Positions 13,196-38,822 of a stretch of DNA of 64,000 nt are shown piece by piece. Position 1 is the first letter of the stretch. Each line of letters begins with the position of its first letter. A program made the position numbers and the translations under genes. The notes beneath the pieces were generated by a model, which saw only the letters and a program-made list of their open reading frames with translations, ran no database searches and was not told where the DNA came from. Source of the stretch: Gammaproteobacteria bacterium (lineage in GTDB: Bacteria; Pseudomonadota; Gammaproteobacteria; Eutrophobiales; Eutrophobiaceae); contig JBFFIE010000006.1 of NCBI GenBank assembly GCA_041556555.1, positions 5,452 to 69,451 of the forward strand, given 5' to 3'.

Positions 13196-13272
13196 TGTCC
13201 TTGAGGAGCGTTGCGACGGGCTGACCCCGCCAGGCTCGAGAATACAGCAAGTTTCAAACGGCGCTCGCTTAA
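13196..13272 (+). ncRNA. SAH (S-adenosylhomocysteine) riboswitch in the ahcY leader
   Basis: Three conserved SAH-element blocks appear in order: GAGGAGCGTTGCGAC, GCCAGGCTCG and AACGGCGCTCGC. They sit immediately 5' of a GGAGG Shine-Dalgarno and the ahcY ATG at 13289. The context is the one typical for this riboswitch. Confidence 0.7.
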
Positions 13273-13288
13273 TTTGGAGGAAAACCAG

Positions 13289-15681: not shown

Positions 15682-17124
15682 TTGTCTGAATATTCAGGCA
15701 GTGTGCTGGAAAAAAACCTTGCCGGGAAACCCGGCCTGTTACTGGTCGACGATGATCCACTCATCGTAGAATCACTCGGCTTGGTTCTGCAAAAAAATTA
15801 CTCACTGATCACCGCAGAAACGCGCAAGCAGGCCATCAAACAGATACAGGCGTTGCCGGAATTCCCGCCACTGGCACTGATTGATCTTGGCTTGCCGCCC
15901 AAGCCCCATAGTGTGGAGGAAGGGTTTGCTTTAATCCATGATTTGCTGGGGTATAACCGCAACATAAAGATACTGGTTCTTTCGGGCCAGAATGAGCAGG
16001 AAAACATTCGTCATGCTTTAACGCTCGGCGCCGTGGATTTTATTCCCAAACCCTGCGACGCTACCTTGTTGCAAACCCGACTGCAGCATCAATTGATGAT
16101 GCTGGAGGCCGAGCAGGAAGAGGATACCCGGGATCTGTCCACTGAACGATTACTGGGCGAGAGTCAGGCAGTGAAAACCCTGAAAAGTCTGGTTGAACAA
16201 TTCGCTGACACACCATTCCCGGTGTTGATCGAAGGGGAGTCCGGCGTCGGCAAGGAACTGGTTGCCCAGAGCCTGCACAGCATGAGTAACCGCAGTCGGC
16301 ACCCTTTCCTGACATTGAACTGTGCGGCATTTACAGCGGAGTTACTGGAGGCGCAGTTGTTCGGTTATTGCAAGGGGGCATTTACCGGTGCAACAACCAA
16401 TAAAGCCGGATTTTTCGAGGAGACCAGCGAGGGCAGCCTGTTTCTTGATGAAATTGGTGAATTGCCACTGGATCTGCAATCCAAGCTTTTAAGGGTATTG
16501 GAAAATGGCGAGTATTACCGCGTGGGTGAAACACGCCCAAATATTTCCAATGCGCGGATCATCGCTGCAACCAATCGGGACCTGAAAGAATCAGTTCAGG
16601 CCGGACAATTTCGCCAGGACCTCTATCACCGCCTGAGTGTGTTAACGATCAACGTACCGCCCTTGCGTGAACGGGGTGATGATCCATTGTTATTGCTTAA
16701 TCATTTCATCAAGTTTTATGCCCAGGGCGGTCCCGCTTTCGAACTTGATGAATCAGCTCTGGCCCTGTTAAAAGACTATGATTTTCCCGGCAATATTCGC
16801 GAATTAAGAAACATTGTCATCCGCCTGGGGGCAAAATATCCGGGTGAGCGCGTCAGCAAAGACCAGCTTGCCGGAGAACTGGAGCTTGCTGTGTCAGGCA
16901 TGACTCACATTCAGGGGCCTGATTTTGATGAAATTGCCAGAAAAGAATTACAGGACAGCGATTTTATATTGGATCAAACTCTCGGCGAATGGGAAAGACG
17001 ATACATTTATATTGCCCTTGAGATGGCAAACGGAAATCTCAGCAAGGCAGCGCGGCTACTGGGCATCAACCGGACAACCCTGTACAGTCGCATGCAACGC
17101 CTGGATATAGAGGAACAGGGATAA
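15682..17124 (+). CDS. Sigma-54-dependent response regulator (REC + AAA+ sigma-54 activator + Fis-type HTH), PilR-like. First gene of the pilus operon
   Basis: A receiver domain reads LLLVDDDP...LIDLGLPP. A sigma-54 activator domain follows, with GESGVGKE and the GAFTGA motif. The C-terminal HTH reads [19 protein letters not shown]. The start is probably the TTG at 15682, which has a GGAG 9 nt upstream; a GTG at 15703 is an alternative. The stop overlaps the next gene's ATG (TAATG). Confidence 0.8.
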
Positions 17125-18446
17125 TGTATTACCAGTATTTTGGTCTGGAGCAACCGCCGTTCCGAATCACACCGGATACCTCCCTGTTTTATCCCGGCGG
17201 CAACCGTGGCGCGATCCTCGAAGCTCTGATTTATGCCATTGTCAATGGCGAAGGCATGATCAAGGTGGTCGGAGAGGTCGGCAGCGGCAAGACTATGTTA
17301 TGCCGTATGCTGACGGTGGAATTACCTGATCATATCGAAGTGGTCTATCTTGCGAACCCGAGTCTCTCTCCGGACAACATCCTGCATGCGATTGCCTTTG
17401 AACTGAAGCTGGACGTCAAGGCCGATGATGACCGCCTGGAGGTGATGAACAAGTTGCAGAATTACCTCCTTGAGCGGCATGCCCAGAGCCAGCAGGTGGT
17501 TGTGTTTGTTGAAGAGGCCCAGGGCATGCCTGTCCAGACCCTGGAACAGATTCGGCTGTTGACTAATCTCGAAACCAATGAGAACAAGCTGTTGCAGATT
17601 GTATTATTCGGTCAGCCGGAACTCGACGAGATGATTTCCAGTCGTGACATTCGTCAGCTGAAGGAGCGCATCACCTACAGTTTTAATCTGGGACCGCTTA
17701 ATGCCGAAGAGATCAAGGACTATATCAATACCCGGATCCGGGCCTGTGGTTGCCGTTCCGGTGATCTCTTTACCAGGCAGGCTATTCAGCAGATCAGCAG
17801 ATACTCGAATGGCCTGTTACGACGCATCAATATTCTCTCGGACAAATCATTGCTGGCCAGCTATGCGGCCAATGATCGGAGTGTCAAGCCACGCCATGTC
17901 AAACTGGCAGCGCGTGATACTGAATTCATCACGCCCTGGCAAAGGTATCGTCTGCCCATGTTTGTTCTGGCTGCATTGGTAATAATGGCCATCTTGGTAT
18001 TTTTAACGCCACTGGGCCAGACAGTGACGGACCTGATGAAAGCGACCCCGGTATCGCTCACTGATCCAGAAGACACTGACCTGACGGTTGATACAGCGAG
18101 ACCGGATATCCCGGTAGAATTGGGCAATGAGGCAAGTTCTGCACCCGAAGAGCCACAACCTGAGGCCGGGCAGGCAGCCGCCAGCATGCTTGCGAACGAT
18201 CTGGCAATTGAGCCCCCTGCCGAGGAGGCGCCAGATGAGCAGGAAATTCTCGAATCCATCCTCAAGGATTATTCAGCACGTTACCTGGCTATTGATGAGA
18301 TCATGAATGAGCAGGATGCCGAGTTATTTATCCAGCAAATCAAGTCCCGCCTCCCGGAGTCAGTGTACCTGGGACAACCAGAGTTACCCTGCCGTCTATG
18401 CCCTCTGATTGTTTACCGTCCTGTGAAATCTGACGAAAATCTATAG
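17124..18446 (+). CDS. ExeA/GspA-like AAA ATPase (MshM-like) with a C-terminal TM helix and an acidic Pro-rich tail
   Basis: The N-terminus [13 protein letters not shown] and the Walker A motif GEVGSGKT are characteristic of the ExeA family. One TM helix is present (LPMFVLAALVIMAILVFL). No peptidoglycan-binding domain is recognisable. Confidence 0.7.
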   Translation: MYYQYFGLEQPPFRITPDTSLFYPGGNRGAILEALIYAIVNGEGMIKVVGEVGSGKTMLCRMLTVELPDHIEVVYLANPSLSPDNILHAIAFELKLDVKADDDRLEVMNKLQNYLLERHAQSQQVVVFVEEAQGMPVQTLEQIRLLTNLETNENKLLQIVLFGQPELDEMISSRDIRQLKERITYSFNLGPLNAEEIKDYINTRIRACGCRSGDLFTRQAIQQISRYSNGLLRRINILSDKSLLASYAANDRSVKPRHVKLAARDTEFITPWQRYRLPMFVLAALVIMAILVFLTPLGQTVTDLMKATPVSLTDPEDTDLTVDTARPDIPVELGNEASSAPEEPQPEAGQAAASMLANDLAIEPPAEEAPDEQEILESILKDYSARYLAIDEIMNEQDAELFIQQIKSRLPESVYLGQPELPCRLCPLIVYRPVKSDENL

Positions 18447-18531
18447 TCGTCAGTTATTTATATAAACTATATAATCTGATAATGTAACGTTGGGGGTGGT
18501 TGTCGAGCGGCTAACGGAGGCAGTTTGTGTG

Positions 18532-20175
18532 ATGAATAAATATATAAAAATCAATAGCTTGCTATTGCTATTGTTGATCTCATCCTGTTCGCTGATAGAA
18601 CCCAAACCGTTTGAACCCTCGCCCGGCCATATCGAGGATCAGCCGGCCCCGCCCGGCGAAATCCCGGAACTGGTCGAGGAAGTCCCCCCGGCCCTGCCTG
18701 AACCATCGCCGCCTGTAGAGCTGGAGAAATACACGGTTGTGGTGAACGAAGTGCCTGTCAAGGAGCTGCTGTTTGCCCTCGCCCGCGACTCAAAGGTCAA
18801 TGTCGATATCGATCCCGGGATCAGTGGTGTAGTGACCCTGAACGCTGTAGACCAGACCTTCCCGCAGATACTTGATCGGATCAGTCAGCAGGTGAATCTG
18901 CGTTATGAATTCCAGGGCGTCAACCTCTTGGTGAAACCCGACAAGCCCTACCTCAAGGCTTACAAGATTGGCTACATCAATATGAGCCGGGAGACGACCA
19001 GTGATGTTGCCATCGCAACTCAGATTTCAACGACCGGTGGAGGATTTCAGGCCGGTGGGGGTACGACCGGTGGTGGCGCCGGGGGGGGAGATAATAATTC
19101 CACCACAGCGATAAAGAATACCTCGAATAACTTGTTTTGGGGAAACCTGGTCAATAACGTCCAGGCCATTCTGGAGCAATCAACCGGAAGTGCCGGTGGT
19201 GAGGCATCCGCCAATGTTGAGATTTCCAACAGCGTCATCCCCAATCCCGAAACCGGTATACTGACTGTGCGTGCAACCCACCGCCAGCATGCCGAGGTCC
19301 AGAGGTATATCGATGCCGCCATGGAAAGCGCACATCGCCAGGTATTGATCCAGGCGACGATTCTGGAAGTGCTCCTGACCGATGATTACCAGGCAGGCGT
19401 CGACTGGAGTTTCCTGGATGACACAGGCATTAGTGTGATTTCAACTACGGCAGGGGGTCCATTGACCGGTGAAGTTGCTTCATTTGTACTCGAATATTTC
19501 GATGCAGGTGTTGATGGTGAAGACACCGTTGACGCAACCTTGACCCTGCTTGAGGAATTCGGCGATATAAATGTCCTCTCCAGTCCCCAGATCATGGCCC
19601 TGAATAACCAGACCGCTATCCTCAAAGTGGTTGAGAATGATGTCTTTTTTACGATCGAGTCTGATACCACTCAGTCACAAACCAGTGCAGTCACCACTTT
19701 TACAACGACCATCAACACGGTTCCAGTGGGTATCGTGATGTCGGTAACGCCGCAGATAAATGACAATGACAGTATCATGCTCAACATCAGGCCGACCATT
19801 TCCAGGATTGTGCGTAGGGTAAGTGATCCCAATCCCTCTTTGACTACTGTGCAGAACTTAATCCCCGTAATTAATGTTCGTGAAATGGAGTCGCTGTTAA
19901 GATTGAGCAATGGACAGGTCGCCGTACTTGGTGGCCTGATTGAAAATCAGGAAACCGACAGGGTAAACAGTATTCCAGGCTTTTCCAGGCTCCCGCTTAT
20001 TGGCGAGGCCTTTAAAACAACCGTCAAGGAATATCAGAAATCCGAACTTATCATCTTTCTGAGACCAGTGATTGTTAATAACCCGACCGTGGATTCAGAT
20101 CTAGATATATTCAAGCCGTACCTCGATAGCCGGCGCCAGTCTTCCGGGTCTGAATCAGGAGCTAGTTCCCGGTGA
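18532..20175 (+). CDS. Lipoprotein secretin, MshL-like (type II/IV secretin family)
   Basis: ATG at 18532 with a GGAGG upstream. Lipobox LISSC. The N-domain carries a Gly-rich insert. The C-terminal secretin domain includes the motifs LSSPQIMALNNQTA and IPGFSRLPLIGEAF. Confidence 0.8.
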   Translation: MNKYIKINSLLLLLLISSCSLIEPKPFEPSPGHIEDQPAPPGEIPELVEEVPPALPEPSPPVELEKYTVVVNEVPVKELLFALARDSKVNVDIDPGISGVVTLNAVDQTFPQILDRISQQVNLRYEFQGVNLLVKPDKPYLKAYKIGYINMSRETTSDVAIATQISTTGGGFQAGGGTTGGGAGGGDNNSTTAIKNTSNNLFWGNLVNNVQAILEQSTGSAGGEASANVEISNSVIPNPETGILTVRATHRQHAEVQRYIDAAMESAHRQVLIQATILEVLLTDDYQAGVDWSFLDDTGISVISTTAGGPLTGEVASFVLEYFDAGVDGEDTVDATLTLLEEFGDINVLSSPQIMALNNQTAILKVVENDVFFTIESDTTQSQTSAVTTFTTTINTVPVGIVMSVTPQINDNDSIMLNIRPTISRIVRRVSDPNPSLTTVQNLIPVINVREMESLLRLSNGQVAVLGGLIENQETDRVNSIPGFSRLPLIGEAFKTTVKEYQKSELIIFLRPVIVNNPTVDSDLDIFKPYLDSRRQSSGSESGASSR

Positions 20176-21842
20176 GTCTCTTAATGGATGCCTTGAAAAA
20201 GGCGGAACGGGAGAAAAAAGAAGCAGCCAAACGTTTAAAGGAGTCGCAGGAAAGGTCCGGTATGGATCTCACCCTGGAAGAAGCGACACCCCGACCTGAA
20301 GCAGAGACAGAGGCAGAAGACAGCACGAAGAGTCAACAGCCGGAAATAACCGCTGATCAGCCAGAACAACAAGAGGAATCTGCCGGTGATCTTTCTCTTT
20401 CACCGATCGAAGACGAGATTGATACCGAGGCACCAACCCAGAAGATTGACCTTTCGAAAATGAAGGACCCCGGTACGTCCGGACTTTCACTTGAAGACAA
20501 AAATGATTTGACTCTTGATCAACCGGATCTGGTGGAGTCGGTTGAGGACGAGGAAACTGACGAGGAAACTGGTCCCGAAGCACCTGTCTTTGCTATCAAT
20601 TCACTTTCAACGGAAGAGGATTATATCTCCCCGCTGGAAGATTCCGGCCTGCATGAATTACCGGAACAAACCCTTGAAGATAGCGGCATCTTTACCCGCT
20701 CACTCGATGAAGGCAAGACTCTGCAGTCAGCACTTTCAGCAGAAGAGCTGGCCAGGGAGATGGGCGATGACCCAAATGCGCCCTTGCCGGTAGCCGCGCA
20801 AACTGTGTTTAATGCCTCTGCCGGTCAAAGCAGCAAGCGACAATTTATGGAATGGTTTTTATTTGTGGCCTGTTTTGCAGTTTTGATCATTGCTGGCAGT
20901 ATTTTTTACTATCTGAAAACAACACCTGAAATCTCGCCTCCGATCCGCCCGCAAATGGCAGAGACCGAGACTGCTACAGTCGAACAGATTATAGAACAGG
21001 CGCAAGTATCTTCAGATGTATCCGGTGAATTTACTAGTACCGAGACAGGACAGGAAATAGTGCTGGATGATTCCGCAGCACAGACAGCCAGTATTGGGAT
21101 ACCTGAAAAACCAGACGCCATAGAGGCTGCTGATAAGGAAACCATTGCCATGCGACAACCTTTGCCAGAGCACAAACAAGGACAGGAAAATATTTTACCG
21201 AACGAAATCAGGGTTGAACCGAGGGTGTTGCAAATAAGTCGCAGCCGTGCTGTCCGCGAGAGTGATTTACTGGTGCATGATGCTTACGCCGACTATAAAG
21301 CCGGAAATTTTGACTCTGCGGCAGCAGCCTACCAGAAAGTACTGATTACCCATCCTGAAAACCGCGATGCACTCCTTGGCCTGGCTGCCATAGCGCAGAA
21401 CAGGGGTAACCAGCAGCAGGCAAGTCAATACTACCTGCGTGTTCTCAAGAATTATCCTTCTGATGTGATTGCCAAGGCTGCTTTGCTTGCATCAACCAAT
21501 AGCAAGGAATCGGCCGCCGAAAATGAAAGCTTGTTAAAATCAATGATCAGCGATTCACCGGACACGGCTGATTTACATTTTATCCTTGGCAACGTATTTG
21601 CCAGTACTTCCCGCTGGAACGATGCGCAACAATCCTTCTTTGAAGCATTCAGGCTGGATAATGAAAATGCAAACTATGCTTATAATCTTGCAGTCAGCCT
21701 GGATCATCTCGGCAAGACGCAGGCTGCCTTGCAATATTACCGTCTGGCAATGGAGTTGGCCGAATCATCTTCAATAACACTGAACACCAACGTCCTTGCC
21801 TCCAGAATTGCTGCGCTCTCTGATTTTTCGCAGGATCAATAA
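20172..21842 (+). CDS. TPR-repeat membrane protein, MshN-like, with a long acidic cytoplasmic N-terminal region
   Basis: GTG start that overlaps the secretin stop (GTGA). The first 220 aa or so are D/E-rich. One TM helix follows, then C-terminal TPR repeats. Confidence 0.6.
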   Translation: MSLLMDALKKAEREKKEAAKRLKESQERSGMDLTLEEATPRPEAETEAEDSTKSQQPEITADQPEQQEESAGDLSLSPIEDEIDTEAPTQKIDLSKMKDPGTSGLSLEDKNDLTLDQPDLVESVEDEETDEETGPEAPVFAINSLSTEEDYISPLEDSGLHELPEQTLEDSGIFTRSLDEGKTLQSALSAEELAREMGDDPNAPLPVAAQTVFNASAGQSSKRQFMEWFLFVACFAVLIIAGSIFYYLKTTPEISPPIRPQMAETETATVEQIIEQAQVSSDVSGEFTSTETGQEIVLDDSAAQTASIGIPEKPDAIEAADKETIAMRQPLPEHKQGQENILPNEIRVEPRVLQISRSRAVRESDLLVHDAYADYKAGNFDSAAAAYQKVLITHPENRDALLGLAAIAQNRGNQQQASQYYLRVLKNYPSDVIAKAALLASTNSKESAAENESLLKSMISDSPDTADLHFILGNVFASTSRWNDAQQSFFEAFRLDNENANYAYNLAVSLDHLGKTQAALQYYRLAMELAESSSITLNTNVLASRIAALSDFSQDQ

Positions 21843-21844
21843 CA

Positions 21845-23560
21845 ATGGCGAAATCAAATAAGAAACATCTACGTCTGGGTGAAATACTGGTACAGCAAGG
21901 TGTTACCACCCCGGATCAGATCGAGATAGCATTAACCGAGCAAAAGAAAAGCAAGGAAAAGCTGGGCAAGATACTGGTGCGCCTCGGCTTTGCAACAGAA
22001 GCCATCATTCGTGATGTTATCGGCGGTGTCATTGGCCAGGAAAGTGTCAACCTTGATTATGCCGTTCCCGACAGCGAGGCTGTGAAACTGATCCCGAAAA
22101 ACCTCGCCAGACGATTGCATGTCCTGCCCCTTACCTACGACAACACAGCAAAGACACTGACGGTAGCCATGACGGATACCTTCAACGTCGTTGTGCTGGA
22201 CCAGATTAGCGTCCAGGTAGGCCGTGAGATTGAACTGGTTCCTGTGCTCGCCGGCGAGGCCGAAATTGAAAAGGCCATCGACCAGTTTTACGGATTTGAA
22301 TTATCGGTTGATGGCATCCTGAATGAAATTGAAACCGGTGAAATCGACTACCAGAGCCTTGATTCGGAAACGGACGAATACAGTCAGCCGGTAGTAAGAT
22401 TGGTTAATGCATTGTTATCTGATGCGGTAAAGCGTGGGGCATCAGATATTCACTTTGAACCGGAAGAAGGATTCCTGCGTTTCCGTTATCGTATTGATGG
22501 CGTACTGCGACAGATACGTAGTATCCACAAGAACTACTGGTCTGCCATTGCAGTCCGCCTGAAAGTGATGTCGGGCATGGATATTGCTGAAACCCGCGCA
22601 CCACAGGATGGTCGAATTTCTCTTTCCCTCTCCGGCCGTATTGTCGATTTTCGCGTGTCAACCTTGCCGACAGTGCACGGTGAAAATATTGTCCTCCGGG
22701 TACTGGACCGGCAAAAAGGCATTGTCGCACTGGACAAATTGGGGCTTAAGGATGATGCACTGAATACTCTGAAGATCATGGTCGGCCGACCGGAAGGCAT
22801 CATCCTCGTCACCGGGCCCACGGGCAGTGGTAAAACCACAACGCTCTATTCCATCCTCAATTACCTGAATGAGGAAAACGTCAACATCATGACCCTGGAA
22901 GACCCGGTAGAATATCCGACCAGCATGATCCGCCAGACTTCGGCTAGCGAAACTTCGCGCCTGGATTTTGCCAGTGGTATCCGTTCCATGATGCGTCAGG
23001 ACCCCGACATTATCCTGGTCGGTGAGATTCGTGATGAGGACACGGCAAGTATGGCCCTGCGCGCCGCCATGACCGGTCACCAGGTGTTTTCCACCCTGCA
23101 CACCAATTCGGCCCTTGGTGCCATTCCCCGATTGCTGGATATCGGTGTCCAGGCCGATATCCTCGCCGGTAATATCATTGGTGTGCTCGCCCAGCGCCTG
23201 GTCAGGAAATTATGTGATGCCTGCAAGGAATCCTACCAGATGAGTGACCTGGAAAGGACACTTCTGAACCTGAAATCCACAGACAGGCAGCAGGATATTT
23301 TCCGGGCCAAGGGCTGCCAGCAGTGTGATGGTCAGGGTTACCGTGGTCGGTTGGCTATACTGGAAATACTGCACTTTGATGCAGATATGGATGAACTCAT
23401 TGCCCGGCGAGGCACCCAGCGAGAACTCATGCGCGCGGCCTTGTCCAAGGGTTTCAAGACACTGGCTGATTCCGGCTCTGACCGGGTCCTGGATGGCTCA
23501 ACATCACTTGAAGAAGTTTCCCGTGTAATTGACCTGACTGGACGTATAACACACAAGTAA
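21845..23560 (+). CDS. GspE/PilB-family type IV pilus assembly ATPase with an N-terminal MshEN (c-di-GMP-binding) motif pair, MshE-like
   Basis: Two tandem 24-aa motifs are present: RLGEILVQQGV...LTEQ and KLGKILVRLGF.... Walker A (GPTGSGKTTT), Asp box, His box and a tetracysteine motif are also present. Confidence 0.85.
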   Translation: MAKSNKKHLRLGEILVQQGVTTPDQIEIALTEQKKSKEKLGKILVRLGFATEAIIRDVIGGVIGQESVNLDYAVPDSEAVKLIPKNLARRLHVLPLTYDNTAKTLTVAMTDTFNVVVLDQISVQVGREIELVPVLAGEAEIEKAIDQFYGFELSVDGILNEIETGEIDYQSLDSETDEYSQPVVRLVNALLSDAVKRGASDIHFEPEEGFLRFRYRIDGVLRQIRSIHKNYWSAIAVRLKVMSGMDIAETRAPQDGRISLSLSGRIVDFRVSTLPTVHGENIVLRVLDRQKGIVALDKLGLKDDALNTLKIMVGRPEGIILVTGPTGSGKTTTLYSILNYLNEENVNIMTLEDPVEYPTSMIRQTSASETSRLDFASGIRSMMRQDPDIILVGEIRDEDTASMALRAAMTGHQVFSTLHTNSALGAIPRLLDIGVQADILAGNIIGVLAQRLVRKLCDACKESYQMSDLERTLLNLKSTDRQQDIFRAKGCQQCDGQGYRGRLAILEILHFDADMDELIARRGTQRELMRAALSKGFKTLADSGSDRVLDGSTSLEEVSRVIDLTGRITHK

Positions 23561-23563
23561 CAA

Positions 23564-24769
23564 ATGGAAGCATTTCAATATAAAGCAGTTGATGATCGGG
23601 GCCGGATAACCGTCGGCAAGATCGACGCCGTCAATATTGCAGATCTGGAGACGCGCCTCGACAGGATGGGTCTTGACCTGGTCAATTATAAAGACCTTGG
23701 GCCGACTGGACCAAAAATTACCGGCGTTGGTGTTTCGCGTCGTGACCTCATCACATTTTGTTTCCATCTTGAGCAAACCGGTCGTGCCGGCGTGCCGATT
23801 CTGGAGAGCCTCGAAGACCTGCGTGACAGTAGTGATAACCCCAGGCTGCGCGAAGTCATTGCAGCGATGATTGATTCCATCGAGGGTGGGCAAACACTAT
23901 CCCAGGCAATGCGTAATTACCCTGCGGTCTTCGACAGCATATTTTGCAACCTGGTCAGAGCGGGTGAACAGTCGGGTGAAATTGCCCAGGTATTCTATCA
24001 GCTGGGCGAGAACCTGAAATGGCAGGACGAGCAAGCAGCCCAGACCAAGAAACTCCTCATCTATCCGGCATTCGTCGGTACAGTTGTCATAGCCGTTGTT
24101 TTCTTCCTGATGGTCTACCTGGTGCCGGAATTGCTCCGCTTTGTAAAAACCATGGGCCAAGAGCTGCCCATGCACACCAAGATTCTGATCGTGGTTTCCA
24201 ATGCCTTTGTCCAGTACTGGTATCTGTTTGTCCTGATCCCGGTACTGGTGGTTGGCGGATTGATGATTGCGATAAGGGTGAACGAAACTGCAAGGTACCA
24301 ATATGATGCCTTCAAACTAAAAATACCGATTATTGGCCCGATACTTCGCAAAATCATCCTGACTCGCTTGACCAGCTTTTTTGCCATGATGTATGCATCT
24401 GGCATTACCATCATCGAGTGCATTCGTACCGGTGAACAGATAGTAGGTAACAAGGTAATTGAGCAGGCAATGCACCAGGTTGGTCAGCACATTGCCGACG
24501 GCGCAACGCTGAGTACCAGCTTTGAAAGAACAGAACTGTTTCCACCACTGGTGTTAAGAATGATACGTGTTGGCGAGAATACCGGAGCCCTTGAGGAATC
24601 ATTGATCAATATCAGCTACTTTTACACCCGCGATATCAAGGAATCGATTGAAAAATTGCAATCCATGATTGAGCCTACGATGACGGTTGTCCTTGGTGCA
24701 ATTATTGGCTGGGTCATGTTATCTGTCCTTGGACCTATTTATGATCTCATCACTAAAGTCAAAATTTGA
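23564..24769 (+). CDS. GspF/PilC-family inner-membrane platform protein, MshG-like
   Basis: 401 aa. Two GspF repeats and three TM segments are present. Confidence 0.85.
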   Translation: MEAFQYKAVDDRGRITVGKIDAVNIADLETRLDRMGLDLVNYKDLGPTGPKITGVGVSRRDLITFCFHLEQTGRAGVPILESLEDLRDSSDNPRLREVIAAMIDSIEGGQTLSQAMRNYPAVFDSIFCNLVRAGEQSGEIAQVFYQLGENLKWQDEQAAQTKKLLIYPAFVGTVVIAVVFFLMVYLVPELLRFVKTMGQELPMHTKILIVVSNAFVQYWYLFVLIPVLVVGGLMIAIRVNETARYQYDAFKLKIPIIGPILRKIILTRLTSFFAMMYASGITIIECIRTGEQIVGNKVIEQAMHQVGQHIADGATLSTSFERTELFPPLVLRMIRVGENTGALEESLINISYFYTRDIKESIEKLQSMIEPTMTVVLGAIIGWVMLSVLGPIYDLITKVKI

Positions 24770-26351: not shown

Positions 26352-26961
26352 GGGCATGGATGTTTCGGTTCTCAAGGGCGCAGCTATTGTGTTTCTCATT
26401 AGTCTTTTGTTCAGTGGCGGCCTCGTCTGGAGCGGGTGGTATTTCAAGGATGAAATGCTGAATGCCTACAACAGGGCGAAAGCCCAACAAAAAAGTGTTG
26501 CAAGCAGCTATGTTTCCATTGATGAGGAGAAAAGACTGGTCAGGGAATATCTGCCAGTATTCAAGAATCTCCATACGTTTGGTGTATTTGGTCAGGAACA
26601 TAGACTTAATTGGCTGGAAACACTGCGCAGTACGGGTGAAAAGCTGAAACTCCCGGCATTGCGCTACGAAATTGATTCACAAGATATCTATGTTCCTGAT
26701 TACACGGTCAATAGTGGAACCTTCAAAATATACGCCAGCCCGATGATATTGAATGTTGAACTGGTTCACGAAATTGATTTACTTGATCTGCTGGATAACC
26801 TTGATCGGAAGGCACAGGGGATTTATAACCTTAAATCATGTGAACTGATCCGGTCTCCAAAGGATGTTTCCCGGGAAAAATTAGATTCATATGTAAATGC
26901 AGATTGCAAGCTGATGTGGTTTAACATCAAGAAATCTGACGGTAGAACGATAGATATCTAG
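26344..26961 (+). CDS. PilO-like (MshJ-like) bitopic inner-membrane protein
   Basis: 205 aa with an N-terminal TM helix, then a coiled coil, then a periplasmic domain. It overlaps the previous gene by 8 nt (ATGGATAG). Confidence 0.45.
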   Translation: MDRGMDVSVLKGAAIVFLISLLFSGGLVWSGWYFKDEMLNAYNRAKAQQKSVASSYVSIDEEKRLVREYLPVFKNLHTFGVFGQEHRLNWLETLRSTGEKLKLPALRYEIDSQDIYVPDYTVNSGTFKIYASPMILNVELVHEIDLLDLLDNLDRKAQGIYNLKSCELIRSPKDVSREKLDSYVNADCKLMWFNIKKSDGRTIDI

Positions 26962-26964
26962 ATA

Positions 26965-27438: not shown

Positions 27439-27483
27439 CTCCCTCCCGCTTAATCACACCTGAATATTGTGGGATAGTTCAAT

Positions 27484-29178
27484 ATGAAAAAACCTGTGCC
27501 ACAAAAACAAAAGGGTGCCGTATTACTTGCTACTACACTTATCTTGATACTGGGCTCTGCCTGGTTATTGATTATCAACCTTAACAACAATGCCAGGCGT
27601 TTTGCGAATTACGAGGAGAGTATGCAAGTACTCAGAGAGGCAAAACAGGCCCTGATTGCCTATGCGGTTAACTATTACGAATCCAATCCTGGCCATTTCG
27701 GTTTTTTACCTTGCCCGGATTCAAGTACCACTGGTGAGGAGGGTAACCAGGAAGCCCCCTGTGGGGCACGATATGTCAATGTCATGGGTAAGTTTCCCTG
27801 GCAAGCGCTGGATCTTCCCCCACTGAAGGATGCTTATGGTCAATGCCTGTGGTATGCCGTCTCCGGTGCGGTCAAGGGAGGTAGTAGCCGCTCTGAAATG
27901 TTGAATGAAGATACCCATGGCACATTCCAGATTATGGATCCGGATGGCGTCACAGTGGTTGCCGGGGCCACACCCAGGGAAAGGCCGGTGGCCGTTATTT
28001 TCGCCCCGGGACGTTCCATTAATAACCAGACACGGGCCGATAGCAACGGCGCTATCTGTGAAGGGAATGAAGCGGTGAATTATGTGGCGAGTAATTATCT
28101 TGATGCCGAGGTACCGTCAAACCCCCTGTTGGGTATCAGGAATTATGTCGTAAGTTCCACAGCGGATACGGTAGACCAGTTCATAATGACAGGCGATCCG
28201 GAGAGTGAGGATTTCAATGATCTGATGCTTTACATCACGATTGATGAGATCTTTGATGCCATCAAGCAGCGTAACGATTTTGCAGATAAGCTTTACGACG
28301 AGGCCGCCTTGAATAATCTTACCTATCGGGTAGCAGAATGTATTGCCGGCTATGGCCAGTACCATGCCGATAAACACGTTGACGATGGTGATGGGGATTA
28401 CAATCGCAGCCTGCCTTGGCCTGCGCGTTTCGATTTTGCGGATGATGACAACCGTTACCGGTATGAAGCAGAATATTATGATATTGATAATAGTTCACTG
28501 CTCATGGGGAGAGTCCCCATAGATATCAGCAACAGCAACGATGAGATATATAATGGCTGCAGTTCACCGCATACCTGTTTACCCCCGTCTGACAGACTCA
28601 TAGACACCAGTACGTCGCCATATTCGGGGTTTTGCAGGGCGTTCTGGCTGGTGTATTCGGATAACCCGATTAGTCCATCTGCCACAAATGAGTTGATTGA
28701 CTTATGGAATAACTGGAAAGACCATTTATTCTATATTGTGTCGGAGGAATATCAGCCACAGCCCATGAGCGCAGATACAGATGCCTGCCTCGACACTACT
28801 CAATCACCGGATGAAATCGAACCTAGATGTATTACAATAAATGTGCCGTTCACTTATCCGCCGAATGACCAGTCGTTGAATATGACAATGGTGGCTGCAA
28901 TAGTTATTTTCTCTAATGAGACATTACCATCGTTATCACAGTCAAGATCGGCACCACCGATCGATACCGATGACAAGCAGAATCCTGCCTCGAATCTGGA
29001 AGACCGGAATATCATCCCCTATACGACTTCTGATGTAGGGATAGATACAGAGTTTTCCAGTAATCAAGTCAGTGCTACTTTTAATGATGTTCTTTATTGC
29101 ATCAATGAAGATACGGATGAAACGTCGATTGGCGGACCACCGCCGTTCAAGGCGGGCAGATGCCCGGTGAATCCATAA
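27484..29178 (+). CDS. Large PilX_N-type pilus-associated protein (pseudopilin-like N-terminal helix without the canonical G-F-T-L-I-E)
   Basis: The N-terminus QKGAVLLATTLILILGSAWLL resembles the PilX N-domain. It shares an LPCPD...C...G-x-F/L-PW-x-x-L-x-x-P block with the downstream pilin. The large C-terminal region is acidic. Confidence 0.5.
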   Translation: MKKPVPQKQKGAVLLATTLILILGSAWLLIINLNNNARRFANYEESMQVLREAKQALIAYAVNYYESNPGHFGFLPCPDSSTTGEEGNQEAPCGARYVNVMGKFPWQALDLPPLKDAYGQCLWYAVSGAVKGGSSRSEMLNEDTHGTFQIMDPDGVTVVAGATPRERPVAVIFAPGRSINNQTRADSNGAICEGNEAVNYVASNYLDAEVPSNPLLGIRNYVVSSTADTVDQFIMTGDPESEDFNDLMLYITIDEIFDAIKQRNDFADKLYDEAALNNLTYRVAECIAGYGQYHADKHVDDGDGDYNRSLPWPARFDFADDDNRYRYEAEYYDIDNSSLLMGRVPIDISNSNDEIYNGCSSPHTCLPPSDRLIDTSTSPYSGFCRAFWLVYSDNPISPSATNELIDLWNNWKDHLFYIVSEEYQPQPMSADTDACLDTTQSPDEIEPRCITINVPFTYPPNDQSLNMTMVAAIVIFSNETLPSLSQSRSAPPIDTDDKQNPASNLEDRNIIPYTTSDVGIDTEFSSNQVSATFNDVLYCINEDTDETSIGGPPPFKAGRCPVNP

Positions 29179-29181
29179 GCC

Positions 29182-29946
29182 ATGAACCAAAAAAACAAAA
29201 GCCTTGCTAGCCACGGTTTCACCCTGATAGAACTCGCTATCGTGTTGTTCATTGTCAGCCTGTTACTGGGCGGCTTGCTCATGCCCTATGCGACCAGTGT
29301 CGAACAACGGGAGCGTGAGGACACAGCCGAGATCCTGGAGGACATCAAGGAAGCTCTGTATGGACACGCATTGGTTAACGGTTACCTGCCTTGCCCGGAT
29401 TGCGAGACAGGCCAGGCCTGTGCAGCCGGTACACCGGATGACGGGATAGAAGACAGAAATGGCAACCTGTGTTCAGTAACGCTTTCTGCTCAAAATACCT
29501 ACACAGGGAATCTGCCCTGGGCCACGCTCGGCGTTCCCCAGTTTGATGCCTGGGAAAAACCATTTACCTACAGCGTGACCGATACTTTTTCAAATGACGC
29601 GGTTCCTTTTACCCTGACGGATACCGGGACGATAGACATACTCGACCAGGACGGCGCCGCCACGGCCCGGATAGCGCAGAGCATCCCCGCTATCGTAGTT
29701 TCCCACGGCAAGGATCATTATGTGCCCGCGCAAAGCGCAGACCAGGTAGAAAACTACGAGCGCGATGCGAACATATATGGCACAACCAATAGTATCCTCA
29801 CAGCATATTCAGGTGATAATGCCGGTGAATTTGTCTTTACCGATTACAGGCTCTTGGGGGGTAATATTGATTACGACGATATGATGATCTGGATTTCCCC
29901 GTTTGTCATCAAAAACCGGATGATTGCCGCAGGTCAACTGCCCTGA
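29182..29946 (+). CDS. Type IV (prepilin-type) minor pilin, Cys-rich
   Basis: The prepilin cleavage/methylation motif reads HG|FTLIELAIVLFIV. Five Cys residues fall within about 40 aa (LPCPDCETGQACAAG...NLC). It is the last gene of the operon. Confidence 0.75.
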   Translation: MNQKNKSLASHGFTLIELAIVLFIVSLLLGGLLMPYATSVEQREREDTAEILEDIKEALYGHALVNGYLPCPDCETGQACAAGTPDDGIEDRNGNLCSVTLSAQNTYTGNLPWATLGVPQFDAWEKPFTYSVTDTFSNDAVPFTLTDTGTIDILDQDGAATARIAQSIPAIVVSHGKDHYVPAQSADQVENYERDANIYGTTNSILTAYSGDNAGEFVFTDYRLLGGNIDYDDMMIWISPFVIKNRMIAAGQLP

Positions 29947-31610: not shown

Positions 31611-31667
31611 CTGAGAGAGAAGTTTTTTTAAGCATATATAGTATATTATTTACAGTTGTTTTGATAT

Positions 31668-32453
31668 TTGTCGGGATCACTAATGAAATATCCTGTCGGG
31701 GCCATTGCCCGTTATAGTTTGCTGGAAGCAGTAAGAAGTCATATTTTCCTGCTCGTGGTACCGGGCGTGATAATTCTTTTCGGCATCTCGCAATTCGTTG
31801 GTGAACTGGCCGTCACTGAATCCAGGGAAATTCAGGCTGCTATAACCGCTTATATAATTCGAGTTCTTGCCGTAATTATTACATGCCTCTTTATTGTTTT
31901 ATCCTGTTTGCGGGAATTTAATGAAAAGACAGTCGATATAATTTTTGCATTACCGGTTCCACGATATGTTTATTACCTGGGCAAGCTGTTCGGTTTCTCA
32001 GGCCTTGTTTTTATAGTAGCCGTGTTATTTTCGTTACCACTTTTTCTTTATGCAGATATGATGCCAGTAGCTTACTGGTCAATATCGCTGGTCTGCGAGT
32101 TATTTATTATGACGAGCCTCAGCCTGCTGTTTTTACTGACTCTTGGAAATGCCACATTGACCCTGAGCCTGGTCTTTGCGTTCTATGTTTTGTCACGAAC
32201 CATAAATACAATCCAGTTAATAGCAGCCAGCCCTGTTATTGAAGCAACATCTTTTTCGCAACATTTAATAAGCGGTATCATTGATGTGATCGCCTTTCTA
32301 TTGCCGGATTTTTCCCGCTTTGCCCAAACGGAATGGTTAATGACAGGTTCAGTCGATATCAACGAAATAAGTTTTGTATTTTTGCAGACGACGGTCTATG
32401 TGGTGTTATTATCAGCCGCAGCACTGTTTGACCTCTATCGAAAGGAATTCTAG
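31668..32453 (+). CDS. ABC-2 family transporter permease
   Basis: 261 aa with about 6 TM helices. The hydrophobicity profile is ABC-2 type. Confidence 0.6.
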   Translation: MSGSLMKYPVGAIARYSLLEAVRSHIFLLVVPGVIILFGISQFVGELAVTESREIQAAITAYIIRVLAVIITCLFIVLSCLREFNEKTVDIIFALPVPRYVYYLGKLFGFSGLVFIVAVLFSLPLFLYADMMPVAYWSISLVCELFIMTSLSLLFLLTLGNATLTLSLVFAFYVLSRTINTIQLIAASPVIEATSFSQHLISGIIDVIAFLLPDFSRFAQTEWLMTGSVDINEISFVFLQTTVYVVLLSAAALFDLYRKEF

Positions 32454-33196
32454 TGTTTCATAGATTCAGTCGCTCGGGTTTATTTACCCATTCTACCCAA
32501 CGGCCCGTTTCCAGCGTTCCCGGGACAGTGTCACTGGTCTTGTTGCTTGCCCTGGGTCTGCAGTTCGTCTTGCATGGTTATTATGTTGAGAGGGATGTGG
32601 TCGGTAAATCGCTTACGCTGGCACCATCCGAACACCATGCCAGCATGCTGGGCCTGGGGGACAATATCGCGATCGCCAAGATACTGATGCTTTGGTTGCA
32701 GGCCTTTGATAATCAACCGGGCCTGAGCATACCGCTTGCTAGACTTGACTACGGGAGGGTAACAGGCTGGCTGCAACTGATACTTGATCTGGATCCACGG
32801 GGTCAATACCCGTTATTTGCAGCGGCACGCATCTATGCCGGGATTCAGGACGAGGACAAACAACGCCAGATGCTTGGATTTGTCTACCGGAATTTTTTCA
32901 AGGATCCAAACCATCGATGGCCGGCCCTGGCGCACGCCGTGTACATAGCCAAACACCGCCTGAATGATATGCCATTAGCCTTAAAATATGCCGAGGCAAT
33001 GGCAGATAATGTAACCGCAAAAGATGTACCCTTCTGGGTCAAGCAGATGCACATTTATGTGCTCGAAGATATGGGTGAACTGGAAGCGGCAAGGATTCTG
33101 CTGGGCGGGCTCATCGAGAGTGGTACCATCAGGGATCCAAATGAGCTCGAGTTCCTGCGTTCACGGCTCAGGAATCTGGAGGAAAAGACTGAATAG
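32453..33196 (+). CDS. Hypothetical membrane-anchored protein (the PilG-slot gene in a pilGHI-like arrangement)
   Basis: GTG start that overlaps the permease stop (TAGTG). One N-terminal TM helix is present. I recognise no domain. Confidence 0.4.
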   Translation: MFHRFSRSGLFTHSTQRPVSSVPGTVSLVLLLALGLQFVLHGYYVERDVVGKSLTLAPSEHHASMLGLGDNIAIAKILMLWLQAFDNQPGLSIPLARLDYGRVTGWLQLILDLDPRGQYPLFAAARIYAGIQDEDKQRQMLGFVYRNFFKDPNHRWPALAHAVYIAKHRLNDMPLALKYAEAMADNVTAKDVPFWVKQMHIYVLEDMGELEAARILLGGLIESGTIRDPNELEFLRSRLRNLEEKTE

Positions 33197-33331
33197 GAGC
33201 GGGAATCGGGACCTGGCGATGTTCAATAAAAGTGTCGAGATTTCGACAAACTGATGACAGCTCGTCAGTTTTTCCCGTGTTCACCCAGATATTAAATTAT
33301 AAAAGTTAATAATTACAGATAGTTAGTGGTT

Positions 33332-33346
33332 TGGCATGGAAAATGC
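33332..33346 (+). promoter_or_regulatory. Sigma-54 (-24/-12) promoter of the major pilin gene
   Basis: The sequence is TGGCATGGAAAATGC. The GG and GC elements are at the consensus spacing (TGGCAC-N5-TTGC). It lies 38 nt upstream of the pilin ATG. Confidence 0.65.
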
Positions 33347-33383
33347 GAGATGACTGGCAGAGAAAACGCTGAGGTGTATTGAG

Positions 33384-34097
33384 ATGACGACAATGAAAAG
33401 ACAATCCGGTTTTACCCTGGTCGAAATTGCCATCGTACTGGTTATCGTTGGCCTGTTGCTCGGAGGCATACTGAAAGGCCAGGAATTGATCAACAGTGCC
33501 CGAGTCCGCAACCTGGCGGATCAGAACGCCGCGGTTCAGGCAGCCTATTATGGTTTCATCGACCGCTATCGGCAGATTCCCGGAGATTGGCCGGCAGCTG
33601 CGGCGACCACCGGTATCGGGGTGACTATCGTCAGCCCGACTTCAGCCAATGCCGGTAATGGTCGTATCGATGACGGTGACTGGGACGAAGCCTCCGGAGT
33701 CTGGGAACAGCTGGCCGGCGCCGGTTTTATCGCGGGTAACTACAGTGGTGGCGGTACTGCCGCGAACTACACTGACGGTACCCGTGCGCCAGTGAATGCA
33801 TTTAATGGTTCGGTATTACTTGGTCGCATGGACCAGTACCAGGACAATGGCACCGCCGTTGAGCGCCTGGCCTTTTCCTTCGGCAACCAGATCCCGGCTA
33901 AGATCCTGCGTGAGCTGGATGTGAAGCTGGATGATGGTCGGCCACTGACCGGTATTCTAAGGGCCTCGGGGACGGCCACCGGTGGTTGGGCCACCATGTT
34001 TACCTCTGTTGCTGCCTGTACTGCCGGTACGGCCCCGAATATAGAATGGGACGTGGCCACGGACTCACAGGATTGTGGCGCAGTCTCGCTCTATTAA
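33384..34097 (+). CDS. Type IVa major pilin candidate (prepilin with a C-terminal disulfide loop)
   Basis: The leader MTTMKRQSG|FTLVEIAIVLVIVGLL has the class III signal with Glu at +5. A C-terminal Cys pair (C...19 aa...C) forms the D-region. Its own sigma-54 promoter lies upstream and an intrinsic terminator downstream. Confidence 0.8.
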   Translation: MTTMKRQSGFTLVEIAIVLVIVGLLLGGILKGQELINSARVRNLADQNAAVQAAYYGFIDRYRQIPGDWPAAAATTGIGVTIVSPTSANAGNGRIDDGDWDEASGVWEQLAGAGFIAGNYSGGGTAANYTDGTRAPVNAFNGSVLLGRMDQYQDNGTAVERLAFSFGNQIPAKILRELDVKLDDGRPLTGILRASGTATGGWATMFTSVAACTAGTAPNIEWDVATDSQDCGAVSLY

Positions 34098-34124
34098 TCC
34101 TGTTTGATAAGCAAACATTAAAAA

Positions 34125-34150
34125 GGCCCGCACTAACGCGGGCTTTTTTC
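34125..34150 (+). terminator. Rho-independent terminator after the pilin gene
   Basis: GGCCCGC-actaa-GCGGGCC stem-loop followed by TTTTTT. Confidence 0.7.
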
Positions 34151-34176
34151 TTCAAAGTTGCTGAAAGATAGAATCG

Positions 34177-34896
34177 ATGACTATTCCTGTAGTTGAAATC
34201 AATGCTGTGTCCAAGTCCTATGGGCGTAAACAGGTCCTTTCAGATATCAGTCTTTCTATCTCTGAGGGTGAATACATTGGTCTCGTGGGTCTGAACGGTG
34301 CCGGCAAAACAACCCTGATTAAATGTCTGCTGGATTTCTGTGCCCTGGACAGTGGCCAAATCCGTATCTTCGGTCGTGAACATCGGGATACTGAATCCAG
34401 GAAATCGCTGGTTTTTTTGCCGGAGAAGTTTATTCCACCCTATTTCCTGAAGGGTAATGATTTTCTCAAATACATGGCAGCACTTTATCAAATTAATGTC
34501 GATAACGAATTAATTGATTCATTGTTACAAGTGATGGATCTGGATGCAGAGTCACTGGACCAGCCGGTCTACAAATATTCGAAAGGTATGTCACAGAAAC
34601 TGGGTTTAATAGCCAGCCTCATGACCGGGAGGCAGTTACTGGTTTACGACGAACCCATGAGTGGTCTGGATCCCAGAGCCAGGGCGCGTTTAAAAAAGCA
34701 TTTGCTATCACTCAAGTCTGCCGGGCAAACCCTGTTTTATTCTTCCCATTTGCTCGAAGACGTTAAAGCCATGTGCGATCGTCTTGTCATTCTGCATCGC
34801 GGTCAGGTCCGTTTTTTTGGCACACTGGATGAATGTATAAAATCATTTGTTGCAAACGATCTGGAAGAGGCCTACTTACATTGCATCGATCAGTGA
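34177..34896 (+). CDS. ABC transporter ATP-binding protein (ABC-2 / CcmA-like)
   Basis: Walker A (GLNGAGKTT), ABC signature (YSKGMSQKL) and Walker B (LLVYDEP) are present. Confidence 0.85.
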   Translation: MTIPVVEINAVSKSYGRKQVLSDISLSISEGEYIGLVGLNGAGKTTLIKCLLDFCALDSGQIRIFGREHRDTESRKSLVFLPEKFIPPYFLKGNDFLKYMAALYQINVDNELIDSLLQVMDLDAESLDQPVYKYSKGMSQKLGLIASLMTGRQLLVYDEPMSGLDPRARARLKKHLLSLKSAGQTLFYSSHLLEDVKAMCDRLVILHRGQVRFFGTLDECIKSFVANDLEEAYLHCIDQ

Positions 34897-38609: not shown

Positions 38610-38822
38610 TTGTCTTTTCGGATATTGGCAAACAACATGTCAGATATTGTCAAGGATAATGATTTATTGATTTTTTGAATAGATGTTTGTCATCACAATA
38701 ATTGGTAGAATTCTGTCCAGGGTACATCAGGAGCATGCCTGATTTGGTTATCTTCTGGCATTGCGCCTCTACTCATGGTCAGGGATACTGGTCGATATAA
38801 CAAATTCAAGAAAAGATATTTC

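Follow-up and report, generated by a model that had tools for sequence, protein, structure and literature searches.

Contig JBFFIE010000006.1 of the gammaproteobacterial assembly GCA_041556555.1 carries, within the 64,000-nt stretch that we analyzed (the window), a locus that appears to encode a type IV filament machine related to mannose-sensitive hemagglutinin (MSHA) pili. The locus opens with a plus-strand run of 11 open reading frames (ORFs) that extends from 15556 or 15682, depending on the start chosen for the first gene, to 29946, followed by one convergent ORF and by four plus-strand ORFs that reach 34896 (Table 1). The run encodes a sigma-54 response regulator, an MshM-like ATPase, a secretin, a tetratricopeptide repeat (TPR) protein, an assembly ATPase, an inner-membrane platform, four proteins that we refer to as ORF7 to ORF10, and a minor prepilin (ORF11); a sensor kinase, ABC transporter genes, and a major prepilin gene lie beyond it.

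TABLE 1 Genes and sequence elements of the filament locus, in order of position in the window
Feature	Position	Strand	Basis and remarks
NtrC-family sigma-54 response regulator	15682..17124	+	Pfam Response_reg, Sigma54_activat, HTH_8
MshM/ExeA-like AAA_22 ATPase	17124..18446	+	Pfam AAA_22, E 3.9e-28
MshL-type lipoprotein secretin	18532..20175	+	TIGR02519 pilus_MshL, 264.3 bits (cut-off 250.2)
MshN-like bitopic TPR protein	20172..21842	+	TPR families; transmembrane (TM) helix 230-248; periplasmic TPR domain
Assembly ATPase with N-terminal MshEN domain (binds cyclic di-GMP, c-di-GMP)	21845..23560	+	T2SSE, 440 bits; MshEN (PF05157)
GspF/PilC/MshG-family inner-membrane platform	23564..24769	+	T2SSF in two stretches
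ORF7, PilM-like domain, TM helix, and PilN-like periplasmic domain	24741..26351	+	AlphaFold2 model and Foldseek
ORF8, bitopic protein, TM 7-25	26344..26961	+	Position and topology
ORF9, small exported protein with N-terminal hydrophobic segment	26965..27438	+	TM prediction
ORF10, giant pilin-like protein	27484..29178	+	N-terminus KG/AVLLA, without Glu5
ORF11, 254-aa minor prepilin (HG/FTLIE)	29182..29946	+	N_methyl, E 1.5e-5; TIGR02532 above cut-off
Convergent sensor histidine kinase, seven predicted TM helices	29934..31610	-	HATPase_c
ABC-2-type permease, six TM helices	31668..32453	+	Weak match (ABC2_membrane_3, E 1.2e-3, below cut-off); syntenic in 40 loci
Conserved single-TM protein, not an ABC-2 permease	32453..33196	+	Sub-threshold DUF2944 match only; syntenic in 36 loci
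Perfect palindrome TGTCGAGATTTCGACA, candidate enhancer (upstream activating sequence) for the regulator	33233..33248		Sole site in the window with 0 mismatches
Sigma-54-type -24/-12 element TGGCATGGAAAATGCG	33332..33347	+	GG and GC in register; 37 nt before the pilin ATG
Major prepilin, 237 aa (SG/FTLVE)	33384..34097	+	N_methyl, E 1e-7; TIGR02532 above cut-off
Intrinsic terminator, strong	34126..34149	+	GCCCGC-loop-GCGGGC and T6; 3' of the pilin gene
ABC transporter ATPase	34177..34896	+	ABC_tran, E 1.9e-22

The ORF listing reproduced the coordinates of an earlier note on this DNA, which had described the 11 genes of the run as tightly coupled. Computed from the longest or reader-chosen starts, their junctions are overlaps of 1, 4, 29, and 8 nt and gaps of 43, 2, 3, 3, 45, and 3 nt, as that note had given them, with one correction. 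The gap between the MshM-like ATPase gene and the secretin gene, which is AT-rich, comes to ~85 nt because the signal peptide and lipobox of the secretin (MNKYIKINSLLLLLLISSC; lipobox LLLLLISSC) start from the ATG at 18532; the longest ORF runs from a TTG at 18490. The regulator gene has an alternative TTG start at 15556, and its stop overlaps the mshM start by 1 nt.

Profile searches confirmed seven of the 11 labels proposed for these genes, namely, the regulator, the AAA_22 ATPase, the secretin, the TPR protein, the MshEN ATPase, the platform, and the prepilin. The labels PilO-like, PilP-like, and PilX_N lack profile support because ORF8, ORF9, and ORF10 match no Pfam model, even at E ≤ 10, and no NCBIfam model. 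ORF7 likewise matched neither collection, and its label of a PilM/PilN fusion was borne out at the level of the predicted fold.

Components of the machine

Canonical MSHA pili were represented in our comparisons by the mshH-Q locus of a mislabelled Aeromonas caviae chromosome, searched directly by BLASTP. Besides the MshL model that the secretin passed, the models for GspD (150.9 bits, cut-off 351.35), PilQ (119 bits, cut-off 284.35), and SctC all remained under their cut-offs. The window secretin was 24% identical to Aeromonas MshL; among solved secretins, GspD was the closest and RcpA was a weak match. The MshM-like ATPase has one TM helix (277-295), then a C-terminal periplasmic tail of ~140 aa, and was 42% identical to Aeromonas MshM over 270 aa, that is, over the whole ATPase domain (E 1.5e-71). 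In the TPR protein, a highly acidic, low-complexity cytoplasmic N-terminus of ~230 aa (20172-20860) precedes the TM helix and opens with the motif LMDALKKAEREK, which we take to resemble the N-termini of MshN and GspB/ExeB; the match to Aeromonas MshN itself was marginal (E 0.019). By analogy with ExeA and ExeB, the MshM-like ATPase and the TPR protein may help the secretin to assemble through the cell wall.

The assembly ATPase scored 60.1 against NF053729, the MshE-related model for the c-di-GMP motif (cut-off 38), with the motif RLGEILVQQGVTTPDQIEIALTEQ intact, and binding of c-di-GMP would be expected to turn on the motor and activate extension. Its scores stayed under the equivalog cut-offs for both PilB (534.2 of 675.65) and GspE (533.5 of 630.25), and it reached 53.5 bits with the TadA-family model, for which the cut-off is 373.15. 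The best full-length match among six ATPase places in the Aeromonas record was mshE of the classical mshH-Q locus, at 38% identity, and the closest relative in a plasmid collection, which also served as the source of MshE, PilB, and GspE reference sequences, was 41% identical. Searched against PDB sequences, the ATPase found PilB and GspE about equally close and Tad- or DotB-type ATPases far. In a small neighbor-joining tree (558 columns, 100 bootstraps), the ATPases of the window clade and of Ferrigenium kumadai formed a separate clade with 100% bootstrap support, split from the four GspE sequences included with 85% support. These ATPases appear to constitute a deep clade of their own. The platform protein was 27% identical to Aeromonas MshG and 51% identical to its Ferrigenium orthologue, with a GspF score of 309.5 (cut-off 424).

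An AlphaFold2 model of ORF7, built with 26 homologues (predicted local distance difference test [pLDDT] score of 79.8), comprised an actin-like domain (~1-300), a long membrane-spanning helix (307-367), and a C-terminal alpha/beta domain of ferredoxin-like type. The top Foldseek matches in PDB were PilM of Pseudomonas aeruginosa and of Thermus (5eox, E 9e-11; 2ych; both near E ~1e-10), with further matches to the cytoplasmic domains of GspL/EpsL (4pht_Y, 1yf5) and to FtsA. Because these fold matches to PilM and GspL are combined with the helix and the C-terminal domain, ORF7 is best modeled as a PilM-PilN fusion of GspL-like architecture and, at fold level, as a GspL-MshI analogue. An exhaustive profile search placed the ORF7 family at 2548 clusters at 50% identity, 1121 of them below E 1e-30, and no Pfam domain was found in the members sampled.

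ORF8 was detected in 74 of 80 related loci (see below), and where it is missing the contig ends near ORF7. From its position and topology only, we infer that ORF8 is a PilO/GspM/MshJ-type partner of ORF7. ORF9 carries a small, beta-rich conserved motif, ITLxGxVYRSxGKxTAWIND, and would, judging from its position, be a PilP/MshK/GspC-like link to the secretin. Run against PDB sequences, the family profiles of ORF8 and ORF9 gave no more than chance-level matches, to designed proteins. With hhalign, the family profiles of ORF7, ORF8, and ORF9 reached probabilities of ≤ 0.23 against Aeromonas MshI2, MshI3, MshJ, and MshK (0.2 for MshJ), the single-sequence targets limiting the power of this comparison. 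The identification of ORF7 to ORF9 with MshI, MshJ, and MshK, and of ORF10 with PilX_N, has its basis in position and fold and not in detectable sequence homology. Together, ORF7, ORF8, and ORF9 would form an alignment complex that joins the ATPase and platform to the secretin.

The locus had been said to hold only one minor pilin, a count that was inexact in that ORF10 is itself pilin-like. Its model (pLDDT, 86.9; predicted template modeling score [pTM], 0.87) begins with an N-terminal helix of 57 residues, and Foldseek returned nothing for it from PDB. The globular domain of ORF11 has a paralogue in residues 44-177 of ORF10 (BLASTP E 6e-6), with LPCPD and LPW motifs in common. Across the ORF10 family, whose members range from 342 to 1159 aa, 10 cysteines are invariant and the N- and C-terminal parts are conserved, with a variable middle. 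Loss of Glu5 is a trait of GspK/PilX-type tip subunits. We read ORF10 as a giant pilin-like tip protein, the other ~400 residues of which have no solved structural relative, and regard it as a candidate tip subunit or adhesin. A 2026 study mapped MshD/O/P/Q to PilV/W/X/Y1 and reported that enlarged PilK homologues occur in systems without a tip adhesin (PMC13533445), a pattern that ORF10 fits. The major pilin matched Aeromonas MshA/B in the N-terminal 20 residues alone, and matches of the pilins to GspG and GspH were weak (GspG, 29.5 bits; cut-off 88.85). ORF10 and ORF11 would prime and cap a filament of the 237-aa pilin, with ORF10 possibly acting as an adhesin, and a prepilin peptidase encoded elsewhere in the genome would process the pilins.

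Gene order in related genomes

To collect relatives of the locus, we scanned one genome for each GTDB species with a degenerate pattern and obtained 182 stretches in which an ORF7 relative is encoded; the 80 best loci were compared. All 80 came from metagenome-assembled genomes of uncultured Gammaproteobacteria, and in every one of them the order and strand of the genes were collinear with the window, which answers the earlier note's question of whether the arrangement is conserved. The gene metF lies upstream in 36. A distant ORF7 relative on a metagenomic contig stands in the series regulator-MshM-secretin-TPR-ATPase-platform-ORF7-ORF8-ORF9-ORF10-prepilin.

Through homologues of ORF10 we also reached a cultured bacterium, Ferrigenium kumadai of the Gallionellaceae, in which 10 machine genes (FGKAn22_18860-18950) occur in identical order. 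Identities between the window and Ferrigenium were 63% (ATPase), 51% (platform and MshM alike), 40% (secretin), and 27 to 35% (ORF7 to ORF11). In contrast to the window, the Ferrigenium locus has no leading regulator, convergent kinase, permease, ABC ATPase, or pilin module beside the machine. Its genes bear generic names, five being called hypothetical in GenBank, and ORF7 to ORF10 are still so called in RefSeq.

The architecture had been thought undescribed. In addition to the Ferrigenium genes, however, Emerson et al. (2013; PMC3770913) noted in Sideroxydans ES-1 and in Gallionella ES-2 MSH-homologous clusters that, compared with V. cholerae, show "a significant gene rearrangement" (data not shown), and a 2023 study names Gallionellaceae clusters of this sort MSHA (PMC10734482). 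The permuted order is the norm in a large lineage, for the most part uncultured, that was glimpsed earlier in the Gallionellaceae.

Gene content varied at the ends of the locus. Among loci spanning both flanks, the regulator, the MshM-like ATPase, and the kinase are all present in 27 and all missing from seven, and three are without the kinase only. The seven (L025, L027, L044, L068, L077, L083, and L086) retain the secretin together with the remaining machine genes, and six of them, L027 being the exception, also keep the ABC permease; the secretin gene of L068 and L077 stands directly after metF. The regulator, MshM, and the kinase seem to be gained or lost as a set. Because these seven loci lose the trio yet keep the secretin, MshM would travel with the two-component system and not with the secretin, behavior that was unexpected for a proposed secretin-assembly factor. 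The leading position of the regulator is kept in 40 loci and in the distant metagenomic relative, and the pair of regulator and MshM has the look of an accessory bicistron set in front of a machine operon that is able to exist alone.

Placement among type IV filament systems

MSH-class systems occur in diverse Proteobacteria, have as mandatory genes mshA, mshE, mshG, and mshL as well as mshM, and are single-locus systems in which the absence of a prepilin peptidase and of a retraction ATPase is the norm (Denise et al. 2019; PMC6668835). The locus studied here has an MshL-type secretin, MshM within the locus, and a single-locus arrangement. A scan of the large ORFs of the 64-kb window, which left out about 10 ORFs of 140 to 300 aa (e.g., 57500-58159 and 59893-60798), yielded neither a prepilin peptidase (Peptidase_A24) nor a PilT-like gene. 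The earlier note had pointed to both absences, which stand for the ORFs scanned and are normal for MSH loci, so that they are no anomaly. For MshI, MshJ, and MshK there was no BLAST match, and hhalign probability against the single reference sequences was low.

The MSHA pilus of V. cholerae and Aeromonas (mshHIJKLMNEGFBACDOPQ) shares with the window the MshL-type secretin, MshM, an MshN-like TPR protein, an MshEN ATPase, a GspF-family platform, and the single locus without prepilin peptidase or PilT. The two differ in gene order, which is M-L-N-E-G-(I/J/K analogues)-tip pilins in the window and I-J-K-L-M-N-E-G-F-pilins in MSHA. The window is also without MshF, MshH, and the MshB/C/D set, and it encodes two pilin-like accessory proteins where MSHA has five to six. 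Its alignment proteins and minor pilins have no detectable similarity to their Msh counterparts, its ATPase is at the distance from MshE given above, and a sigma-54 two-component system and an ABC transporter are added. The earlier note's description of the locus as MSHA-related, of the type IV filament kind, and unlike Vibrio in gene order is upheld. As for other classes, GspD, GspE, GspF, and GspG of type II secretion systems (T2SS) all scored below their equivalog cut-offs. For the type IVa pilus (T4aP), PilB and PilQ did likewise, no PilM_2, PilN, PilO, or PilP match was found in Pfam, and PilT was not found among the window ORFs scanned. For Tad/Flp systems, the TadA-family score was below its cut-off and RcpA was only a weak match of the secretin.

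Taken together, the MshL, MshM, and MshN-like module and the MshEN domain appear to tie the system to the MSH class, and the motor, platform, alignment proteins, and pilins seem to represent a separate deep lineage. Our preferred reading, which we hold with a probability of roughly two-thirds, is that the genes add up to a complete type IV filament machine, that its lineage is a deep one related to MSHA (MSH-class) pili, and that the product is most likely a non-retractile adhesive surface pilus. With no PilT, the filament would probably be an adhesin and not a motility organelle.

Several observations weigh against this reading. The ATPase grouped with Aeromonas MshE in just 28% of the neighbor-joining bootstraps. 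It is equidistant from MshE, PilB, and GspE (36 to 42% identity, ~38%). ORF8 and ORF9 are without detectable homology to anything in Pfam, NCBIfam, or PDB profile searches, and ORF7 to ORF10 have no BLASTP similarity to Aeromonas MshI, MshI2, MshJ, MshK, MshO, MshP, or MshQ. The window contains neither rpoN nor, among the ORFs scanned, a prepilin peptidase gene, and the link between the regulator and the pilin promoter (see below) is a co-occurrence in only 14 loci. Finally, sequence by itself does not separate a pilus from a secretion pseudopilus.

This last point bears on the possibility of a T2SS-like machine, in which a short periplasmic pseudopilus would push substrates through the secretin and no extended adhesive pilus would be made. 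Compared with T2SS components, ORF7 has the architecture of GspL (actin-like cytoplasmic domain, TM helix, and periplasmic ferredoxin-like domain), and ORF10 is enlarged and without Glu5, like GspK. In favor of such a machine, the resemblance of ORF7 to GspL is as close as that to PilM/PilN, GspD is the closest of the solved secretins, the pilins have their weak GspG/GspH matches, an ExeA/ExeB-like pair also serves the T2SS as an accessory, and a retraction ATPase is absent. Even so, we consider such a machine unlikely. The GspD, GspE, and GspF scores lie below their cut-offs, the secretin passes the MshL model, and the ATPase falls apart from the four GspE sequences. No sequence match to the T2SSL, T2SSM, or GspK families was found, and GspC and the GspG-H-I-J set are absent. 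The 237-aa pilin is served by a strong promoter and a terminator of its own, as would suit the subunit that makes up the bulk of a filament; ORF10 varies in length as adhesins do; and the locus has no conserved genes for candidate exoproteins.

Still less likely is that the locus is simply a shuffled orthologue of the Vibrio/Aeromonas MSHA pilus, with ORF7 to ORF9 as MshI, MshJ, and MshK and ORF10 and ORF11 as MshP/Q-type minor pilins. The parts do map one-to-one by position and size, the MshL, MshM, and MshEN signatures are present, and papers on Gallionellaceae clusters of this kind use the names MSH or MSHA (PMC3770913, PMC10734482). However, ORF7 to ORF10 have neither BLAST nor profile similarity to the Aeromonas proteins, and the ATPase and platform are no closer to MshE and MshG than to PilB or GspE. 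MshF, MshH, and the MshB/C/D set are absent, there are two minor pilins instead of five or more, and the window clade and Ferrigenium stand apart with full bootstrap support.

The reading of a deep MSH-related lineage could be carried further: the ten-gene cassette from MshM to ORF11 would then be a deep family of type IV filament machines in its own right, set apart from canonical MSH, T4aP, and T2SS, a step that we put forward tentatively and think rather doubtful at present. If true, this family would have its own sequence-orphan alignment complex and a tip complex reduced to two members, centered on a giant pilin that is rich in disulfides and for most of its fold lacks a solved relative. 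It would be abundant in the environment, with more than 1000 ORF7 clusters at 50% identity among Gammaproteobacteria of marine and groundwater habitats and iron-oxidising Gallionellaceae, and would merit a class and Pfam families of its own.

The classification of type IV filaments has been drawn largely from cultured pathogens. Here, an environmentally widespread lineage, found in no fewer than 80 and as many as 182 species-level genomes in addition to the ORF7 clusters counted above, bears MSH hallmarks, but its alignment proteins and tip complex appear to be replaced by proteins outside curated families. Four genes are left hypothetical by annotation because no curated family covers them. 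What is newly documented are these four family-less components, the giant pilin, and a modular PilSR-like circuit; the general picture of how such machines work is unchanged. Cultured Ferrigenium, and probably Sideroxydans, give experimental access.

Control of the pilin gene and genomic surroundings

As the earlier note had proposed, a sigma-54 response regulator heads the locus. Its translation shows REC, sigma-54 AAA+, and Fis-type helix-turn-helix domains with GAFTGA, Walker A, and an acidic pocket. The convergent histidine kinase, which has no HisKA Pfam match, is presumed to be its partner. The best NCBIfam matches were PrsR for the regulator (355.7 bits, under the cut-off of 502.6) and, weakly, PrsK for the kinase (45.8 bits, cut-off 300). 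A PEP-CTERM/exosortase link was weighed because PrsR, PrsK, PrsT (51.5 bits, cut-off 312.2), and TIGR03015 (209.1 bits, cut-off 324.5) were the best NCBIfam matches, and was rejected because all of these scores lie far below their cut-offs and no exosortase was found among the window ORFs scanned.

In agreement with the earlier note, the major pilin gene was also found to have a sigma-54-type promoter element and, apparently, a transcription unit of its own. The palindrome TGTCGAGATTTCGACA lies ~95 nt upstream of the -24 element. The palindrome in the form TGTCGA-N4-TCGACA recurs in the related loci L007, L028, and L064, and related half-sites occur in L018, L022, and L058. Among the 14 loci that reach the pilin gene, 11 carry TGGCA[CT]-N5-NTGC ~55 nt upstream of the pilin ATG; the three in which the element is missing (L025, L068, and L086) are exactly those without regulator and kinase. 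Across 82 loci, in the ≤300 nt upstream of mapped genes, the -24/-12 motif occurred before the pilin only (11 cases), apart from a single copy that falls within the permease gene. The regulator gene, mshM, the secretin gene, and the remaining machine genes never have it upstream.

Within the window alone, the generic sigma-54 consensus was not enriched (48 matches with two mismatches, 40.4 expected from shuffles), and the pilin site, which carries three mismatches to that consensus, was recognized by position and cross-locus conservation alone. The case for sigma-54 is therefore one of comparison between loci. Just one place in the window, away from the pilin gene, matches TGGCAC-N5-TTGCW perfectly: TGGCACTATTGTTGCT (49183-49198, plus strand), just after an AsmA-family gene (46371-49169) and at the start of a 181-aa ORF without Pfam match, upstream of mutY.

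With the motif across the loci and the perfect palindrome in the window found upstream of the pilin, sigma-54 control appears to act on the pilin gene alone, an arrangement known from PilS-PilR systems. In the circuit that we propose, the 7-TM kinase would phosphorylate the NtrC-type regulator, which would bind the TGTCGA-N4-TCGACA palindrome upstream of the -24/-12 promoter and switch on sigma-54 transcription of the pilin gene alone, so that a PilS-PilR-like circuit would set the supply of subunits and not the machine. That the regulator, as first cistron, instead autoregulates one sigma-54-dependent machine operon and makes the whole apparatus sigma-54-dependent, as had been suggested, is most improbable: it is indeed the first gene, is translationally coupled to mshM, and keeps its place in the 40 loci and the distant relative, but the 82 loci have no -24/-12 motif, and the window has no perfect palindrome, upstream of it or of any machine gene, the machine genes survive without it in seven gammaproteobacterial loci and in Ferrigenium, the 85-nt AT-rich gap before the secretin contains the best sigma-70-like match of the region (TCGTCA-17-TATAAT, 10/12), and metF ends just 53 nt upstream of the regulator gene with no predicted terminator between them.

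The PilS-PilR-RpoN/pilA systems of P. aeruginosa, Myxococcus, and Geobacter also combine a multi-TM kinase, a GAFTGA regulator, and a -24/-12 promoter with an upstream palindrome at the major pilin gene; domain architecture and the co-varying element suggest the same combination here. In contrast to those systems, the window kinase has seven predicted TM helices and no HisKA match, and the best family matches of the pair, although sub-threshold, are to PrsK and PrsR instead of PilS and PilR. The machine cluster starts with the regulator gene and has the kinase gene convergent at its end, and the circuit would serve an MSH-like system, not a T4aP. Because loci with and without the regulator-MshM-kinase trio exist and the promoter is found only in trio-keeping loci, a PilSR-like pilin-supply circuit outside the T4aP is directly testable.

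The genes around the pilin had been taken for a split ABC-2 transporter. They are instead a weak ABC-2 permease, an unrelated single-TM protein, and an ABC ATPase, with the pilin gene in between. The ATPase keeps its position after the pilin wherever the contig extends that far, and the ABC genes bracketing the pilin appear to be a conserved accessory. In Myxococcus, the ABC transporter genes PilGHI adjoin pilA and pilSR (PMC6060248). Compared by gene arrangement alone, the M. xanthus pil cluster is alike in having ABC genes beside the major pilin and PilSR-type regulators; it differs in that the window pilin gene is placed between the permease and ATPase genes. In F. kumadai (AP019536), a divergent ABC_tran gene (L088 1-112, minus strand) lies immediately upstream of the MshM-like gene and may be the counterpart of the window ABC ATPase.

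The window consists of chromosomal housekeeping DNA. Upstream of the locus are tkt-gap-pgk-pyk-fba and then metK-ahcY-metF, and downstream are a YpsA-like gene, a Na/H exchanger gene, a Ser/Thr kinase gene, and rsd. An S-adenosylhomocysteine (SAH) riboswitch (Rfam RF01057, 55.4 bits) was identified at 13197-13273 on the plus strand, ahead of ahcY-metF. Given the short distance from metF, the lack of a predicted terminator, and the synteny of metF upstream in 36 related genomes, transcription of the methyl-cycle operon may possibly read through into the regulator-mshM pair.

We also noted two further groups of regulatory genes. At 37230-39281, a few kb past the downstream end of the locus, a Hanks-type Ser/Thr protein kinase, on the minus strand, is encoded together with a homologue of the anti-sigma-70 factor Rsd/AlgQ, and this neighborhood is the same in metagenomic contigs with identical sequence. 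Additionally, a LytTR response regulator and a His_kinase (PF06580) sensor (43080-44940, minus strand) lie beside argH (44757-46358). In Pseudomonas, algR/fimS is a LytTR/His_kinase pair that adjoins argH and governs the minor-pilin operon. The pair near argH in the window may point to a second, T4aP-type system elsewhere in the genome.

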